Virus record (IMG/VR): IMGVR_UViG_2675903278_000002
DNA length: 64,000 nt
DNA from: a virus
Lineage: Duplodnaviria; Heunggongvirae; Uroviricota; Caudoviricetes
Reading direction: 5' to 3' (one strand)
Of this stretch, positions 17,580-56,729 are shown in pieces. Every line of letters begins with the position of its first letter. Positions within the stretch are counted from its first letter, which is position 1. A model generated the notes under the pieces. The model was not told the DNA's origin. It worked only from the letters and a program-made list of their open reading frames with translations, and ran no database searches. A program made the position numbers and the translations under genes.

Positions 17580-17654
17580 GATGGTGTAGCTCAGCGGTAG
17601 AGCAGTTGGCTGTTAACCAACTGGTCGGTGGTTCGAATCCACCCACCATCGCCA
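17580..17654 (+). tRNA. tRNA-Asn (anticodon GTT)
   Basis: Manual fold: 7 bp acceptor stem GATGGTG/CACCATC, D-arm TAGCTCAGCGGTAGAGC, anticodon loop CTGTTAA, T-loop GGTGGTTCGAATCCACC, 3' GCCA. Confidence 0.75.
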
Positions 17655-17656
17655 AT

Positions 17657-17732
17657 GCCGGTTTAGCTCAGTTGGTAGAGCGCCTGCCTTGTAAGCAGGA
17701 TGTCAGCGGTTCGATCCCGTTAACCGGCACCA
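17657..17732 (+). tRNA. tRNA-Thr (anticodon TGT)
   Basis: Manual fold: acceptor GCCGGTT/AACCGGC, D-arm TAGCTCAGTTGGTAGAGC, anticodon stem CCTGC/GCAGG with loop CTTGTAA, T-loop GGTTCGATCC, 3' ACCA. Confidence 0.75.
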
Positions 17733-18052
17733 ACACAACAGGTAAGAGCATTGGGCGAATCGGCGATACTGACCCACAAGCCCGTAAATCGATAGAGTCA
17801 GACCAGTGCTCTTACCGTTGTGAGGAAGTGCAGCTCTTTGAAGCAACCAGAAGATAAGCATCTGGCTTCACAACACAACGATAAGATCATTACGGTTAAT
17901 CGTCGTTCATGTGCACAATGACTGGTCGAAAGGTAGTGATCTTACCGTTGTGATGAATGCACAGGCTGATGTGCCGCAACTACAGTAGTGCGCGCTTTGC
18001 GGGGCTTGCTACAACCCTGTGTCGGAGTTCAGCACCGACCATCACAATAGCT

Positions 18053-18139
18053 GGAGAGTAGGGAGCATGGTGCTCAAGCGGTCTTGAAATCCGTCCCATT
18101 GTGCAAACGATGATGGTTCGATTCCATTACTCTCCGCCA
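18053..18139 (+). tRNA. Class II tRNA with long variable arm, most likely tRNA-Ser (anticodon TGA); anticodon stem imperfect
   Basis: Acceptor GGAGAGT/ACTCTCC, T-loop GGTTCGATTCC, 3' GCCA, long variable region; anticodon loop CTTGAAA only with a mismatched closing pair. Confidence 0.55.
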
Positions 18140-30232: not shown

Positions 30233-30503
30233 AGAATTATGGCGCTTGTTGAGGAAGTCACTCCTCTTACGCACTTTGTTTTGCCATGCCGGCAGTTAGC
30301 TTCTGCCTTTGACTATTCATGCGGCAACCCCGCATTTCGCCACAATGGGCAATTCACTTTTATGGAATAAACTGGCCGTTGTGTCGATTTAATTAGCATG
30401 GCCTTACCATGCTAATTTATTCAACTTGTACAATCCTGCAAATCTATCCACTCAGGCTTACACCGTCTTCGTTATTGTAGAAATGAGGATCATCAGCGTT
30501 GAA

Positions 30504-30719
30504 TCAGCTTAGAGCAACGACATTTGCTGCTGCTGGGCCTTTAGCCCCATTCTCGATAGAGAATTCGACCTGCTGGCCTTCTTCCAAAGTGCGGAAATTA
30601 TTACTCTGAATTGCCGAAAAATGTACAAAAACATCTTTACTGCCATCAGCAGGAGAAATAAAGCCAAAGCCTTTATCAGAGTTAAACCATTTTACTAAAC
30701 CAGTCATTTTATTAGACAT
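30504..30719 (-). CDS. cspA: Cold-shock protein (CspA family)
   Basis: [21 protein letters not shown]... RNP1-like motif; 71 aa from the internal ATG at 30719. Confidence 0.85.
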
Positions 30720-31048
30720 AGATATTACCTTCTTAATTTTGTGAGCCACATAGTGCGGCGAGAATTTGATCTGTATAGATTGGGACTTACTTAGGCACTT
30801 AAGGAGGAGACTCACGAAGAAGGGAAATCAGAAGATAACACTGAACTGAGACTGCTTTACTAAAACTGCTTACATAAGGTCTGTCTTGCAAACCAACGAT
30901 GCTATTAACGCATACCCCTTCTTTTCATGCAACCTTTATTTTTCAAAGATAACTAATTTTTGTCACCATTGGTTTAGTAAACGTTAACGAACCAGACGAT
31001 GCCAGACACCTTTACAGAGAACAGATGCCCGCCAATTGGCGGGCATCA

Positions 31049-33728: not shown

Positions 33729-33743
33729 TCCCATTACGTGACC

Positions 33744-33775
33744 AGTAAGGCGTCTACGGACGCCTTACTTTTTGG
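33744..33775 (+). terminator. Rho-independent terminator (GTAAGGCGTC-TACG-GACGCCTTAC + TTTTT)
   Basis: Read directly; member of a shared AGGCGTC...GACGCCT terminator family with 36079..36108 and 37217..37246. Confidence 0.7.
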
Positions 33776-33787
33776 AAGGAATGTACC

Positions 33788-34733
33788 GGTGAATTATCTC
33801 TTCGTAGATGGCAATAGCCTGGGTTATTACCACCAACAATCTGACAAATTGCACAACGGCGAAATGGAAGTACAGGCTGCTTTCGGCTTTGTTAAGAACG
33901 TCCGTCGTTATGCCTCCATCCTCCATGCCCGACCTATGATTCTTTGGGATGGATTTAGTGACAAGCGTCGCGACTTTTACCCGGACTACAAAGCAAATCG
34001 CGACGACGATCCTGATATGAAAAAGATGAAGGAAGGCTTTGCTATCCAGAAGCCATACATCCTCAAAATGATGACCGCGCTTGGAGTTACCCAACTCATT
34101 GCAAAAGATGCAGAAGCGGATGATCTGGCCGGGCTGCTGGTATCCCGCATGGCACCGCAGCCAACCGTTGAACACATCTATCTGTTAACAGGCGATAGCG
34201 ACTGGCTTCAGTTAGTTCGTGAAAACGTAAGCTGGGTAAGCCTGCGTGAAGACGCCAAAAACAAGCAGGTTAATTTTGAGCAATTTGCGGAGCTGACAGG
34301 ATTCGCCACGCCTCGCGCATTTTTGGAAGCAAAAGCATTACAAGGCGATAACTCGGACAACATTAGCGGTGTTGGTGGCATTGGTGCTGGCGGTGCGAAA
34401 GAGCTGCTGCATGAATGGGGAAGTGTCGCAACGATGGTACGCGGCATCAACGACGGCTCAATCGTGGTTAATAAAGGGCGTCATAAGACCGCCTTCAACA
34501 AACTAGCGAAGAATGCCTTCAACGAGAAAACAGGCTGTCGAATGCTCGAAGCGTTCAAGAGAAACATCACGCTAATGAACCTGATTGAGACGAAGTTTCC
34601 GCCTACCGAAATCGAAACAATCAAAGGCAATCGTGACGTGAAAGCATTCGAGCAACTGTGCTACGAGCTGAATTTCCGTTCGTTCCTTGAAGACCTTGAA
34701 GTGTTTGTTCTTCCATTCGAAAGGTATTGCTAA
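33788..34733 (+). CDS. 5'-3' exonuclease / flap endonuclease (FEN, T4 RNase H / T5 D15-like)
   Basis: PIN-like motifs DGNSLGYY, AEADDLAG, LTGDSDWLQL and H3TH-like GVGGIGAGGAKELL; GTG 33788 chosen because the annotated ATG 33738 lies upstream of and runs through the terminator hairpin. Confidence 0.7.
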
Positions 34734-35001: not shown

Positions 35002-36075
35002 ATGGCAAAAGGAAAATCCGCACTGGCACTTGCTCTGAAAAAGAAAATCGGTAGCAACGACGAAATTCAGAAAGTAACTCATTGGATTGATACAGGCTTT
35101 CCACCGTTAAACAAAGCTATTTCTGGTCGTTACGATGGCGGCTTCCCATGTGGTCGTATCGTCGAAGTATTCGGTCCTCCAAGTGCAGGGAAAACGTTCC
35201 TTGCAACAGCAGCGATGATCTCCGCTCAAAAACAAGATGGTCTGGCGGTATTCCTCGATCATGAAAACAGTTTTGACGTTGGCCTGGCTGTAGCCAATGG
35301 CCTGAACGCAGATGAGGATGACGGTCAGTGGGTATACAAGCAGCCAGATACCTTCGAAGACTCTGTAGAGTTGATCGGCACAATACTTAAATTGGTTCGT
35401 GATGAAGAGCTTATCCCCGAATCAGCACCTATCTGTATCGTGGCTGACTCTCTTGCGTCTATGGTTCCGAACTCCAAAGCCGAGAAGTTCGAAAAGATGG
35501 CTGAAGGCACTGCCAAAGACAAAGATCAGCTAAACATGAACGACAATACGGCACTGGCTCGTGCGACGAGTGCGAACTTCCCTACTCTGGCTTTGTGGGC
35601 ACGCAAATACAACGCCTGCATCATCTTCTTGAATCAGGTTCGCACAAAAATCGGTGTAATGTTTGGCGACCCTACTACGTCGCCAGGTGGAGATTCACCG
35701 AAGTTCTACGCTTCTGTACGTATCCGTCTTGGTGCATCGGTGATGAAGGATGGTAAAGAGAAGATCGGCCAGGACGTAGGCGCAGAATGCATCAAAAACA
35801 AAGTTGCACCACCGTATGGCAAATGCACCTGGAAATTCTACTTCGATCCTACTCGTGGCCTCGACGTTATCGAATCGCTCGTCGAGTACATGCTGGAAGA
35901 AGGATACCTGCCAAAGAACGCCAGCGGGCGAGTTGAAATTGGTGACAAGAAATACACCAAATCGCAGATCGTTGAGATGTATCGGGAGAAGCCACTGGCT
36001 GAAATCATTGCGGCTTTGCAGGCAATCGACGACCGAAGAGCAAAAGACAACCCCACCGAGTCAGTAGAAGAGTAA
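35002..36075 (+). CDS. RecA-family recombinase (RecA/UvsX-like)
   Basis: Walker A GPPSAGKTFLA and RecA-like core; 357 aa. Confidence 0.8.
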   Translation: MAKGKSALALALKKKIGSNDEIQKVTHWIDTGFPPLNKAISGRYDGGFPCGRIVEVFGPPSAGKTFLATAAMISAQKQDGLAVFLDHENSFDVGLAVANGLNADEDDGQWVYKQPDTFEDSVELIGTILKLVRDEELIPESAPICIVADSLASMVPNSKAEKFEKMAEGTAKDKDQLNMNDNTALARATSANFPTLALWARKYNACIIFLNQVRTKIGVMFGDPTTSPGGDSPKFYASVRIRLGASVMKDGKEKIGQDVGAECIKNKVAPPYGKCTWKFYFDPTRGLDVIESLVEYMLEEGYLPKNASGRVEIGDKKYTKSQIVEMYREKPLAEIIAALQAIDDRRAKDNPTESVEE

Positions 36076-38265: not shown

Positions 38266-38601
38266 ATGAAGGCCATCCCATTCGCGCTGTTGTTCCTTTC
38301 TTCGATCGTTGTGGCCGACACCACTGTTTATCAGTGTGAAATGTCTGTAGCCGACGTTAAGAATGGCGCTCTTACCGACGTCATAAAAGCACCATATGGA
38401 GCGATGGTCGTAGACAGCGGCGACCAGTTCTATGTTGTGCGTGACGATCGAGTGTTGTCATCCCCATATCTCACAAATCGTAATGGCAAATTAACCGGCG
38501 TCGGAGAAGACCACTTCGTATACAACAAATACAAGGGCTTCTATGGCGTTCACGCTTCTCAGCAAAGCTACCTTTTCGATGACTGCAAGGAGGTTGGATA
38601 A
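38266..38601 (+). CDS. Hypothetical secreted protein
   Basis: N-terminal signal-peptide-like MKAIPFALLFLSSIVVA. Confidence 0.45.
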   Translation: MKAIPFALLFLSSIVVADTTVYQCEMSVADVKNGALTDVIKAPYGAMVVDSGDQFYVVRDDRVLSSPYLTNRNGKLTGVGEDHFVYNKYKGFYGVHASQQSYLFDDCKEVG

Positions 38602-38813
38602 TGGCATTAACACTGGCAGGTCTGGAAATCGAGAAAACAAGCGGCTACTGGCGTGCTAAGGGTTTCAAGCAGCCTGGCATTCTTGAGCGTCTGGAACGTG
38701 AAGATGGGTATATCGTCCACCAGCGGCGTGAATGGCGTATGTACGATCCAGAAACAGGAAAACTGACTACAAAAGCCGGAACACTTTGGGGTCTGTTGAA
38801 GAAAATACACTAA
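38601..38813 (+). CDS. Hypothetical protein
   Basis: 70 aa ORF with start overlapping the upstream stop. Confidence 0.35.
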   Translation: MALTLAGLEIEKTSGYWRAKGFKQPGILERLEREDGYIVHQRREWRMYDPETGKLTTKAGTLWGLLKKIH

Positions 38814-38821
38814 TAGCACCA

Positions 38822-39300
38822 ACCACTGCGGTGAGTAGTCTGCTCACCGCATTCGTATCCAGCTCATTATCCACTGTAGTCAGTAACAAAACCTTCCTAC
38901 ATATCTGCTAACCACTGTAGCGAGTAGACAGCCTTTCATTCGCATCAAACAACCACTATGGTGAGTATTGGAGTGAGATGTCCAGCGGGTATCCACTATG
39001 GTGAGTAAGCCTTTGCTGTTTTCAGTGGATATCCACTCGCCACAGTGGATACGCTCAAAGATGAGGGCGACAACAACCACTATAGACAGTAAATTTTCCA
39101 AGATACCCAGTGACCACTAACCTCGCAGCCCTTGTTTCATCAGTGTTAGTGATCACTAACATTTAATTCAGTATTTGCATTCTACTGCCTACAGTGGTTA
39201 TCAACAGATAACGATACTCACTATAGTGGATAGCGAATTACAGATATAAGTAAGGCTCACTACAGTGGATAGTGAGCCTTACTACTAACTACAGTGGTTG
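38822..39300. repeat. Iteron array downstream of the rep gene (copy-control, incA-like): roughly ten copies of CTATAGTGGAT / CCACTATAG-type repeats in both orientations
   Basis: Direct reading: CCACTGTAGTGAGTAG, CCACTATGGTGAGTA, ATCCACTATGGTGAGTAAG, CTCACTATAGTGGATAGCG, CTCACTACAGTGGATAGTGAG and others. Confidence 0.75.
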
Positions 39301-39302
39301 GG

Positions 39303-40358
39303 CTATTTGCGAGTCTTTGCCTTGCGCAACTCTTCGAGAAGCGCCAGTTCTTCTTTACTCAACATGACCATTTTGCCTTCTTTTTCGTCAGGCACAACGT
39401 CGATAATGTCATCTTGATTCTCATCTGGGAGGCTATATTCCGTCTCATCATTATCGATTTTTGTTGATATTTGTGCCTGGCGTAACTTTGGCCGCCTATA
39501 GTGGATGACGAAGTAGACCGAGTTTCCGCGCTTAACTTCCGTGTAATCGAGATATCCTATCTCTCGCAGCTGTTCCATAGCCTTTCTTACCGTCGCATTC
39601 TGAGTAATAGTGCGACTTGTCAGATTAAGTCTGGCGCGTAAACGGGCTAGTGATATTGGTGCCGGATCAGGCGGCAAACTTTCAATAAAAGTATAAAGCG
39701 CCTGAGCGGATTCTTTTCTTGAGAGTTCGTTTATAGCCCGGAGTTGCAGAAGAACCTTTTTGTCGAACTGGTAGAGTTCGAAAATCTTGGGATCTGCTTT
39801 CAGTTCGACCGTATCGTGCTTGACACTATATTTTGCCGTTTGCACAAGATGCGTTACGTAAAACTCATCAGAGCCTTTGCTACGGAACGAGATGGTATTT
39901 GTGGCAATACGGCTTAGCGAACTGTCCAGGCGTTTGCGTAACTTCGCTGATGACCTGGCGGTCGGAATGCCACACAGCCTTACAAACTCAACGAACGGCA
40001 ACGTGACAGTATCGCCAACGACCTTGTGTTTGGCAAACGCGTGGATTATTCCCACCCACGTTTTAAAGTCGTTATCCATATCAAGCCGAAGGCCAGAGAT
40101 CCTTATGTCTTCGTACCCTTCGGCTTTTGCCAGAGACAGCTGTTTGAGTTCAGCAGAGGCATCCATAGAGACCATTTGCCCCTTTCTTCCTCTGGATGTC
40201 GATTTCAGCGTCGGAACGAAGAGGCCCAGACGCATCAAAGCAACAGGCTGAACAGTGTTATTAGTGTTAGGAACCAACGTAACAACTTCGCCTGTCTTTT
40301 TATCTGTTTCTGAAAATGCTTCAACGATCGCTATGTTTTTATTGCCGTTTTCGCTCAT
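39303..40358 (-). CDS. repA: Iteron-binding plasmid replication initiator (RepA-like)
   Basis: 351 aa ORF flanked on both sides by iteron arrays, with DnaA boxes and an AT-rich stretch upstream. Confidence 0.75.
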
Positions 40359-40384
40359 TCCAAATGTCTCTTGTTATTCGACGG

Positions 40385-41000
40385 CTTTGGTGGCCTTTGC
40401 TGATTACAGTGGATAGTAGCACTCATCACAGCGGTTATCCTACCGTCTATAGTGGTTTTTCTCCTCTCTATAGTGGTTGCTTTGCTCCCTATAGTGGATT
40501 ATTCGCTCTCTATAGTGGATATCGATCATGTCTGAAGGCAGATGGCACAACGGTTTGAGGTGGGCGGGGATCTTATTGGGTCTTTATGGGTCTCTTTGGT
40601 TCTCTTTGTGATCTGAATTACTGGATCGGGCCTGTGGATAAAAATCAGAGGATTTCAAGAACAGGTAACTCTACTCTTCTGTGGATATTTAAGGACATAA
40701 GAATCATGACTAAGAGTAGAGTTTAAAATATATCTATGTATATCAGTATGTTAATGAAGAATTAAGTCATTAAGTTATCCATAAAAGACAATGTGCTCTA
40801 CTCTCTACAGTGGATATATACAGCTCTCCAGAGTGGTTGTTTTACTCTTCATAGCGGTTATTCAGCTCTCTACAGAGGTTTCTTTGCTCTCCATAGTGGA
40901 TGGCAACACCCTTTCAGACCAGTAACCGCAACGGCTAGAGGCGATCGGGGATCTCTTTGGATCTTCTATTTGATCTTACTTGGGATCTCTTATTTGGATC
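40385..41000. promoter_or_regulatory. Putative plasmid replication origin: two clusters of approx 21-22 bp iterons (40385..40525 and 40795..40920), DnaA box TGTGGATAA at 40633..40641, AT-rich segment 40690..40790 and GGATCTCTTT-type repeats
   Basis: Tandem CTCTATAGTGGAT(T/A) repeats at regular spacing; DnaA-box matches; position immediately upstream of repA. Confidence 0.7.
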
Positions 41001-41101
41001 TATCCAGTGGATAACTGGGATAAGTAAAACAGGCAAATGCAGATTAAGGTATGCCTAATGAGTTATCGTAGCATCGGCCAATAACTACTGAAAAAACGAT
41101 T

Positions 41102-41746
41102 ATGGATCTAAAACGCACGCGCTGGGTTCGTCGTCTTGAGGACGGCTCCTACACTATCGAATCAAATTCCAACCTGAATAAGCAGAAGTTACTTTGTGAT
41201 ATCTGCGGTATAGCGGCGAAGTGCCCGATCTACGAAACCAGAATTAAACTTGATAAGGCTGGTGTGAACTTTCATTTGAATAGTTGTATCAGGTACGTTC
41301 CATTGCTCGCATTTCGTAAACCGATCATCGGATTGGATGCGCCCTACTTCAACACACTCCGTTCAGGAGTAACGTGGCGAGATCGTTTATCACCAGACAA
41401 ACTGATTTGCCTTGTATCCGCAGATACAGGAAAAATCATTCGTTTTGGGAAAGTAGACAAGGTTTACTCAGGCCCAGTTGACGAGATGTTGCGGAAACAC
41501 AGCCGGTTTAATCACCTCTGCATGGGTGGTGAGAAAATCGAGAAGGTTGAAGAAGTGATCCGCAAATCCTACGGACACTTCCTGACCAAAGATAGCCTGC
41601 TCACTGCAATCTACATCAGACATGTAAAACGTGAGTTCGACCTTGAATACCATAGCGAAGAAGAACTGAACCTTGTCGATCCACGTCCTAAAGCTGGCGT
41701 CATAAGCATAAATGCAGCGCGTAAAAAGCCCACTGACGCGCTGTAA
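41102..41746 (+). CDS. Hypothetical protein
   Basis: 214 aa ORF; no motif recognised. Confidence 0.45.
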   Translation: MDLKRTRWVRRLEDGSYTIESNSNLNKQKLLCDICGIAAKCPIYETRIKLDKAGVNFHLNSCIRYVPLLAFRKPIIGLDAPYFNTLRSGVTWRDRLSPDKLICLVSADTGKIIRFGKVDKVYSGPVDEMLRKHSRFNHLCMGGEKIEKVEEVIRKSYGHFLTKDSLLTAIYIRHVKREFDLEYHSEEELNLVDPRPKAGVISINAARKKPTDAL

Positions 41747-56135: not shown

Positions 56136-56729
56136 ATGATTGCAGCCGAAAAAATCAAACAGCGAAAGCGCGACAACTCTCTTCGTGACCTCTGGAGAAC
56201 ACCTGACTGGCTGTTTTCTGCCATTCAACGTTATCTTGGAGTGACATTTGATGTTGACGTTGCCTGCAACAAGGACAATGCAAAGCTGCCTAATTTCATA
56301 GGCGTTGAGCGTGATGCTTTGAAATCTGAATGGGGACAGCCAGGTACAATTGCCTTCCTCAATCCACCCTACTCCAAAATCTCCCCCTGGATTGATGCGG
56401 CTATACGTGAGCAGGCTCGCGGAGTTACAACAGTGATGCTAATTCCTCAATCCCTAGATACAAAGTGGTATGAGCGTGCAACAGAGTGTGCGAATGAGAC
56501 GATTATTCTGTCTGGTGGCCGCGTAGCGTTTGTCGAGCCTGACGTCAATCTGGGTCAGGTAGAAGTAAACATCAACCCAGGTGGCAGTATGCTCGTTGTT
56601 TTTCGAGGATTCTGTCAGGACGCTGGGCACTCTATAAGCAAGATCCCTTTGGACGTCATGAAAAGTCTGGGAGGGTATGATCCTGCGAATGTGATCAGGA
56701 AAAAAAGACCATCAAAGAAGGCTGCTTAG
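56136..56729 (+). CDS. Phage-type DNA N6-adenine methyltransferase (orphan, Dam-like)
   Basis: WRTPDWLF N-terminal motif and catalytic NPPYS; 197 aa. Confidence 0.7.
   Translation: MIAAEKIKQRKRDNSLRDLWRTPDWLFSAIQRYLGVTFDVDVACNKDNAKLPNFIGVERDALKSEWGQPGTIAFLNPPYSKISPWIDAAIREQARGVTTVMLIPQSLDTKWYERATECANETIILSGGRVAFVEPDVNLGQVEVNINPGGSMLVVFRGFCQDAGHSISKIPLDVMKSLGGYDPANVIRKKRPSKKAA

Follow-up and report, generated by a model that had tools for sequence, protein, structure and literature searches.

A predicted iteron replicon of the P1/RepFIB family with two putative tandem origin modules in an SSU5-like phage-plasmid

The closest described systems to the locus analysed here, which lies at positions 38817 to 41023 of IMG/VR virus record IMGVR_UViG_2675903278_000002 (a 64,000-nucleotide stretch of Caudoviricetes DNA, called the window below), are the iteron-controlled replicons of phage P1 and of the RepFIB plasmids. 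P1 is likewise a phage that lysogenises as a plasmid. In P1, initiation and copy number are under the control of RepA bound to the iterons that flank repA, and incompatibility depends on these iterons (PMC10999674). The GenBank annotation of P1, which was used for comparison, gives oriR with five incC iterons enclosing the promoter PrepA, five Dam sites and an 18-bp DnaA site, then repA and nine incA iterons. In RepFIB (P307, F, and pO157), rep has iterons on both sides, with an origin-associated block upstream and a control block downstream (PMC11983097). The upstream iterons of RepFIB are followed by a GATC cluster and the DnaA box TGTGGATAA. The downstream block of FIB replicons alone displaces a resident FIB plasmid, which is consistent with handcuffing (PMC11983097). 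Typable phage-plasmids are mostly IncFIB, and these are chiefly members of the SSU5 supercommunity (Pfeifer et al., PMC7969092).

The window locus is very probably the plasmid-maintenance (theta) replicon of an SSU5-like phage-plasmid, and homology places its function in the P1/RepFIB iteron-controlled family. The 2.5 kb around the locus was 99.9% identical to Escherichia phage Cyrano, which is the phage-plasmid pLF82 of E. coli LF82, and 83% identical to Salmonella phage SSU5. Since a homologous initiator, both iteron arrays, and an origin core of GATC sites and DnaA boxes were all found, the locus shows every sequence-level hallmark of P1 and RepFIB. The original prediction had proposed a P1-like incC/incA architecture. 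The RepA protein, the origin DNA, and the layout indicate that this likeness is true homology and not mere analogy. The iteron arrays on both sides of the initiator gene were borne out, with spacing and orientation matching P1 incC and incA, and all the predicted elements were located within a few bases of where they had been placed, far beyond chance. The origin module is single in P1. Here, the upstream region consists of two tandem paralogous copies of a complete P1-oriR-like module rather than one split incC.

The initiator gene repA (39303..40358, minus strand) was recognised from its open reading frame (ORF), Pfam matches, and homology. It encodes a 351-amino-acid predicted Rep_3 iteron-binding replication initiator with WH1 and WH2 domains. 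The Pfam domain Rep3_N (WH1; PF01051) was matched at E = 1.3e-10 with 42.2 bits (gathering cut-off 22.4), and Rep3_C (WH2; PF21205) was matched with 22.6 bits (gathering cut-off 21.1). A PDB sequence search with RepA returned nothing at E <= 1, and NCBIfam had no match for RepA or its two neighbour proteins, so Pfam is the sole source of the family assignment. The protein is named RepA in the records of phage Cyrano and of plasmids. Its identity was 91% to SSU5 RepA (E = 0), 69% to Rep of Pantoea vagans pPag1 (E = 4e-177), 60% to the classic RepFIB RepA of an IncF plasmid (E = 2e-142), and 49% over 267 residues to P1 RepA (E = 5e-93). The closest characterised initiator is that of RepFIB, and the match to it includes an acidic C-terminal extension that P1 RepA does not have. 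Compared with P1 RepA, the protein is 65 residues longer and is extended at both the N- and the C-terminus. At the DNA level, the window and RepFIB were only about 65% identical within rep. The start codon of repA is a conserved ATG, whereas classic RepFIB starts rep at CTG (PMC11983097).

The iteron is a bipartite repeat of approximately 19 bp. The aligned copies gave the consensus aCTCnCTAyAGTGGwTA, in which the 5′ ACT and the 3′ AG.GG.T are near-invariant. A total of 24 iterons were found, 12 downstream of repA, one within repA, and 6 + 5 upstream. The original prediction had counted about ten mixed-orientation repeats downstream and about nine tandem copies upstream. Both groups are present, the former in both orientations and the latter at 21-22 bp spacing, but the counts are 12 (38817..39303) and 11, respectively. 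The exact core AYAGTGGWT had 20 matches in the 64 kb, 18 of them within 38869..40901, against 1.5 ± 1.3 (maximum 5) in dinucleotide-preserving shuffles of the whole window, which is a 12-fold enrichment. A loose IUPAC pattern was too permissive, and a weight matrix of 23 nt was used instead. The matrix was built from 23 copies, whose own scores (19-28 bits) are circular. It also found a site on which it had not been trained, at 39488, with 16.2 bits, and the best score beyond the locus in the window was 12.3. Tandem Repeats Finder, the check named in the original prediction, independently gave two upstream period-21 arrays at 40446..40522 and 40801..40899. The repeats fill the spaces between convergent or divergent genes.

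The untrained site (39488..39510, plus strand) lies in the 3′ part of repA, across codons for I-H-Y-R-R-P. The same place is occupied in SSU5, pMT1, pHCM2, the Enterobacter plasmid, and two diverged E. coli lineages, and no such intragenic site was found in Pantoea. The site could be regulatory, or it could be a by-product of the coding constraint, from which it is inseparable.

The proximal upstream module begins with six iterons (40396..40524, plus strand). These start at 40396, 40418, 40439, 40460, 40481, and 40502, with spacings of 22, 21, 21, 21, and 21 bp, and the array occupies the position of P1 incC and of the RepFIB BCDD' repeats. A T-rich run of 10-12 bp repeats ending in a perfect DnaA box was then delimited from repeat families and a DnaA-box/GATC scan (40560..40641). 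GATC sites occur in this run at 40569, 40610, and 40624, and three repeat units are degenerate, with GGGTCT or GGTTCT in place of GGATCT. The stretch ACTGGATCGGGCCT of the proximal module is common to the classic RepFIB origin. Next comes the inter-module spacer (40642..40796), in which the DnaA-box scan found one-mismatch boxes at 40680 and 40775. The distal module carries five iterons (40797..40905, plus strand), which start at 40797, 40820, 40841, 40862, and 40883 with spacings of 23, 21, 21, and 21 bp. A cluster of six Dam sites follows (40943..41000; GATC at 40943, 40950, 40960, 40972, 40984, and 40997). These six sites fall within 58 bp at a spacing of about one helical turn, and nowhere else in the window do four or more GATC occur per 80 bp. 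Neither this cluster nor the tandem duplication of the module figured in the original prediction. At the outer end, tandem DnaA boxes AGTGGATAA and CTGGGATAA (41006..41023, minus strand) were located by alignment with the P1 DnaA site.

The plural DnaA boxes of the original prediction are present, although only one is a perfect TGTGGATAA (40633..40641) and three, at 40680, 40775, and 41006, have one mismatch. Counting perfect and one-mismatch boxes together, there are four in the 743-bp intergenic region and 22 in the whole window. The predicted AT-rich segment is also real (40700..40790, 72-80% A+T), though lineage-specific and poorly conserved.

The two modules resemble each other over their whole length. 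An end-to-end alignment of positions 40396..40645 with 40797..41018 gave 71% identity across 219 positions (z = 13.6 against shuffles). The order of parts is shared, namely iterons, a linker with CAACGG, T-rich 10-12 bp repeats of the TTGGATCT type, and GGATC...CC.GTGGATAA. Outside its iterons, the distal module resembles the Klebsiella element, P1, and the distal module of Pantoea more than it does the proximal module of the window. These segments are short, and the comparison only hints at an old duplication as opposed to a recent one.

The order of elements is the same as in P1, where the five incC copies are also spaced at 21-22 bp. Outside the iterons, the stretch CGATCGGGGATCTCTTTGGATCT...TTGGATCTATCCAGTGGATAACTGGGATAAGTAAAAC of the distal module aligns with P1 oriR. 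The distal GATC cluster aligns with the five annotated Dam sites, and the distal DnaA boxes align with the 18-bp DnaA site of P1, AGTGGATAATGTGGATAA, the first box and the 12 nt before it being identical. The 21-mer TTGGATCTATCCAGTGGATAA (40994..41014) is identical to P1, where it comprises the last Dam site and the first half of the annotated DnaA site. The iteron sequence itself is unrelated to that of P1 (GATGTGTGCTGGAGGGAAA), as expected if RepA and its sites co-evolve. IncY replicons have been delimited by iterons nearly identical to those of P1 and a RepA at least ~72% identical to P1 RepA (PMC10999674). With unrelated iterons and a RepA identity of 49%, the replicon is not a member of IncY, although it appears to be P1-like in its working, and it should not be IncY-incompatible.

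Downstream of repA, the weight matrix gave 12 iterons in 23-nt frames (38817..39303), which are predicted to form an incA-like copy-control locus. Six copies are on the minus strand, starting at 38817, 38865, 38906, 38947, 38987, and 39071. The other six are on the plus strand, two in the middle of the array (39012 and 39032) and four next to repA (39181, 39213, 39252, and 39281). The left block of five minus-strand copies (38817..39009) has a spacing of about 40 bp. The four copies nearest repA are oriented like the origin copies, and 6/8 of the others are inverted. In P1 incA, the origin orientation is shared by the three copies nearest repA, and the six farther away are all inverted, whereas two co-oriented copies stand in mid-array here. 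The control iterons number 12 at ~40 bp in the window, compared with nine at ~31 bp in P1 and fewer in classic RepFIB, which has a single origin module and iterons of the ATATAAGCTGTAGT type.

The number of downstream copies differs between lineages: 12 here, 13 in pHCM2, 14-15 in pMT1, SSU5, and Enterobacter, and 17 in E. coli AH04. The variation is confined to the inverted block with 40-41 bp spacing. A range of 12-17 is as expected from unequal exchange in a dispensable control array, and the downstream iteron number may tune copy number. The array also contains an iteron-free island of 87 bp (39094..39180), recognised by alignment, with two half-iteron-like ACCACTAAC repeats and a mean column identity of 90% across five lineages. 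A 16-bp palindrome, GTTAGTGATCACTAAC (39143..39158, including a GATC), was considered as an operator and rejected, as it is palindromic in the window lineage only.

Conservation was measured in an alignment of the upstream region from seven SSU5-type lineages, SSU5, pMT1, pHCM2, the Enterobacter plasmid, and two E. coli lineages among them. The two-module layout, with the same iteron offsets from repA, was found in SSU5, Y. pestis pMT1, S. Typhi pHCM2, the Enterobacter plasmid, and the two diverged E. coli lineages, which are only 77% identical in the upstream region. The arrays are fixed at 6 + 5, position by position, in all seven. The proportion of invariant columns was 92% at the iteron positions that are informative between copies and 70% at low-information and inter-iteron positions. 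It was 78% in the GATC runs and DnaA boxes and 54% in the inter-module spacer. By Fisher's test, the iteron core differed from the low-information positions (p = 6e-6) and from the spacer (p = 9e-14), and the GATC runs differed from the spacer (p = 1e-5). All of the distal GATC sites (6/6) were invariant. Of all parts of the locus, the spacer has diverged most, and it is AT-rich in the window lineage only, a pattern that points to local replacement or to a recombination breakpoint. Beyond these lineages, the two-module layout is found in two Pantoea megaplasmids that are not phage-plasmids. P1, classic RepFIB, and the SSU5-like elements of Klebsiella and pSTM_Phi have a single module only.

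SSU5, pHCM2, and pMT1 carry the same replicon, an IncFIB sub-type, and their DNA is 80-83% identical to the window over the whole locus. The upstream iteron positions, the intragenic site, the GATC runs, and the terminator hairpin described below are common to all. Besides the downstream count (12 against 13-17 iterons), the window differs in its diverged AT-rich spacer and in its distal DnaA box, which is the P1-like AGTGGATAA where SSU5, pHCM2, and pMT1 have TGTGAATAA. The 1998 pMT1 genome paper of Lindler et al. reportedly noted the kinship of its RepA to the RepFIB, P1, and P7 replicons and put the partition locus at a distance of about 36 kb.

The two Pantoea megaplasmids (pPag1 of P. vagans C9-1 and a plasmid of P. 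agglomerans AB378) have the same iteron sequence. Each of their two tandem modules contains iterons, 4-5 GATC sites, and a DnaA box. The GATC clusters are full in both modules there, while the proximal one of the window is partly degenerate. Their downstream array is much longer, with 13-17 iterons over ~1.2 kb. A single-module variant of Pantoea agglomerans, indicated by one BLAST row (H145), was rejected after mapping gave two modules.

The Klebsiella and Salmonella pSTM_Phi elements (pKpn type) have the same neighbourhood, with a cra-like gene, rep, an ASCH-domain gene, and sbcCD. Beside the ASCH-domain gene, their region of GATC sites and DnaA boxes is ~79% identical to the distal module of the window, but their Rep is only ~51% identical, their iterons are of the ACCGCTGACAGCATA type, and the module is single. 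It was also observed that the non-iteron origin core of Klebsiella SSU5-like elements, a GATC run with tandem DnaA boxes (L007 2796..2915 and L004 4293..4430), is 77-89% identical to P1 oriR, although Rep and iterons differ. The origin core seems to stay constant as a frame while Rep and iteron cassettes are swapped.

Both flanks of repA yielded candidate transcription signals. An extended -10 element, TGCTACTAT (40413..40421, minus strand), was read from the sequence and the alignment between the two iterons nearest repA. It is kept in 7/7 lineages, with TAATAT as the pMT1 version, and we infer from it a candidate autoregulated repA promoter. A promoter proposed by a scan tool (-35 at 40525, -10 at 40503..40498) was rejected, as its -10 is not conserved in SSU5. 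Directly past the repA stop codon, RNA folding gave a hairpin with a 15-bp stem (39249..39283, minus strand), which contains the iteron at 39252..39274. Its free energy was -26.9 kcal/mol (z = -5.0), and 0/200 shuffles were equally stable. The hairpin is conserved in SSU5, pMT1, and pHCM2, with minimal covariation. It is probably the repA terminator, because in these relatives a T-rich tail, TTTTGTTTAT, comes next. As an iteron forms part of the hairpin, RepA binding could hinder termination, and vice versa. The only terminator-like match of the scan tool (40947..40966) was just GATC repeats and was discarded. No structured RNA was matched in Rfam at E <= 1 in 38500..41300, and there is therefore no sign of antisense-RNA control of the IncFII type in this interval. 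The repA-linked copy-number mutants of a 2026 phage-plasmid preprint are not relevant, as they belong to another family under CopA/CopT control.

The following working model can be proposed from the homology to P1 and RepFIB. RepA monomers would bind the phased 21-22 bp iterons upstream of repA, and host DnaA would bind the boxes at the outer end of a module. Strand opening would occur in the T-rich, Dam-methylated GATC run between them, followed by loading of the host replisome. Once initiation has taken place, SeqA would sequester the GATC cluster in its hemimethylated state. RepA on the iterons nearest repA would repress its own promoter. The 12 downstream iterons would hold down copy number by titrating RepA and by RepA-mediated pairing with the origin iterons (handcuffing), and they would be the main incompatibility determinant. 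As a working assignment, the distal module (40797..41023) would be the main initiation site. The proximal module (40396..40641) would serve as the repA operator and as an auxiliary or partly decayed origin with six more RepA sites. We lean to the distal module as the one that fires because its Dam cluster is intact and invariant, its tandem DnaA boxes are of the P1 type, and its orthologue is the only module that the Klebsiella elements have. The anatomy of the locus, its homology, and its conservation were observed directly, whereas every functional step of the model, and above all the division of labour between the modules, is deduced from them.

Several points weigh against this model. The evidence on the two modules is divided, as the proximal one occupies the origin position of P1 and RepFIB and has the only perfect DnaA box, while the distal one has the intact Dam cluster. 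That box is perfect in the window only and is reduced to a one-mismatch box in 6/6 relatives. The AT-rich stretch, AT-rich in the window lineage only, is for that reason unlikely to be an unwinding element and was down-weighted. The repA promoter is a consensus-level guess, and the candidate of the scan tool was not conserved. In P1, parA-parB-parS comes directly after incA. Here, the ParA gene of Cyrano is ~30 kb from the locus, and the downstream array adjoins a convergent cra-like gene instead, so the partition genes are not adjacent to the control array. The copy number of P1 is about one. Cyrano exceeds this value with ~5.5 copies per chromosome in overnight cultures (PMC9928086). The searchable literature, which does not cover older subscription papers, gave no experiment on this replicon.

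Other divisions of labour between the modules were also considered. It is possible, though in our opinion doubtful, that the proximal module alone is the working origin. The distal module would then be a negative control or decoy, with five RepA sites and DnaA/SeqA sites for titration or handcuffing, or a relic overlapping the promoter region of the ASCH-domain gene. In P1 and RepFIB, the origin abuts repA exactly where the proximal array sits. The perfect DnaA box and ACTGGATCGGGCCT point the same way, as does the contiguity of the distal GATC region with backbone shared with the Klebsiella SSU5-like elements, which have another RepA and other iterons. However, the distal iterons and the six GATC sites are invariant next to a spacer of which only 54% is invariant, and three proximal repeat units have lost GATC in the SSU5 clade. 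The Pantoea plasmids, without any phage backbone, keep iterons, GATC runs, and a DnaA box in both modules, which makes a mere relic unlikely. Another arrangement is a dual or bipartite origin, in which either module fires or both cooperate through RepA looping over the ~400 bp between the arrays. Both modules are complete paralogues of the P1 oriR unit and both are conserved over a long evolutionary distance, each with 4-5 GATC sites and a DnaA box in Pantoea. We still regard this arrangement as rather unlikely, since Dam sites of the proximal module are being lost in the SSU5 clade and single-module relatives exist (P1, classic RepFIB, and the Klebsiella elements). To our knowledge, no relative of P1 or RepFIB has two active origins, which also counts against it.

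Two further readings concern the nature of the locus. One module might be the origin of the lytic cycle, working with RepA or with the element's own helicase, primase, and Pol III. P1 has separate plasmid and lytic origins, and the locus lies within a block of phage replication and recombination genes in which no lytic origin is annotated. This is very improbable all the same, as the same two-module layout occurs in the non-phage Pantoea megaplasmids and every part has a plasmid-type counterpart in P1 oriR. The original prediction had itself raised the possibility that the repeats are degenerate coding repeats, and chance low-complexity sequence is a related idea. ORFs of 59-80 amino acids can indeed be drawn across the arrays, and one database record annotates an ORF of 141 nt in the downstream array. 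But the repeats are strictly intergenic, they occur in both orientations, and their spacing of 21-23 or ~40 bp mostly breaks the frame. They are crossed only by short ORFs of their own making. They are 12-fold enriched over shuffles, are conserved at the positions that are also conserved between copies, and flank a Rep_3 initiator gene exactly as in P1. Coding repeats can be set aside with near certainty. The preferred reading is still that of a plasmid-maintenance replicon, perhaps fired from the distal module.

The surroundings of the locus agree with an SSU5-type backbone. Genes of the recA-like, stomatin-like, and cra-like types come first. Then follow repA, which runs on the other strand, a gene with an ASCH domain, and genes like sbcCD. 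Many non-mobilizable plasmids of E. coli and E. albertii, ~107 kb in size and typed as IncFIB by PLSDB/MOB-suite, were 100% identical to the locus, and at least 335 plasmid records in the collection contain the whole upstream region. A gene for a Dam-family N6-adenine methyltransferase lies at 56136..56729 on the plus strand (Pfam PF05869, E = 2.5e-38). With this putative enzyme, the element may methylate the GATC cluster of its own origin. P1 likewise encodes its own Dam.

Other features of the window were noted in passing. A full-length match to the cspA thermoregulator in the 5′ untranslated region (Rfam RF01766, 185.7 bits) was found at 30479..30897 on the minus strand, which implies that the phage-plasmid carries a predicted cold-shock-protein gene with an RNA thermosensor. 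The recA-like region is split into two ORFs on the plus strand, 33738..34733 and 35002..36075, with a gap of 268 nt. The Cyrano record annotates the equivalent span as one RecA coding sequence of 2,340 nt, and no Rfam intron family was matched. An artefact of annotation, an intervening sequence that escaped recognition, or the presence of two genes could explain the split. Three tRNA genes (Asn-GTT, Thr-TGT, and Ser-TGA) lie at 17580..18139 on the plus strand.

The replicon family and its IncFIB sub-type (SSU5, pHCM2, and pMT1) are already known, and the sequence is already in the databases. None of the database records compared for the element and its relatives annotates iterons or an origin. 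The tandem module was not described in the searchable literature, with the same gap for older subscription papers, and we do not claim that it is unreported. This replicon probably maintains SSU5-like phage-plasmids in Escherichia, Salmonella, Enterobacter, and Citrobacter, as well as the plague plasmid pMT1. Annotation, replicon typing, and the prediction of incompatibility can all profit from the map of iterons, Dam cluster, and DnaA boxes. The map would also help in the design of curing cassettes, as shown for FIB replicons, in which the downstream iteron block is active (PMC11983097). The proposed mechanism is that of the textbook, and only the tandem repetition of the origin module, which is conserved, might teach something new. 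We tentatively suggest that the second module may be a working part rather than a relic. It could either initiate replication as a second site or act in cis as a decoy origin, governing copy number or timing through five RepA sites, DnaA boxes, and a Dam cluster open to sequestration by SeqA. Expansion and contraction of the downstream array may also act as a copy-number rheostat. If the second module is such a working part, the clade of SSU5, pHCM2, pMT1, and the Pantoea megaplasmids would be a natural dual-origin iteron system within the RepFIB family.

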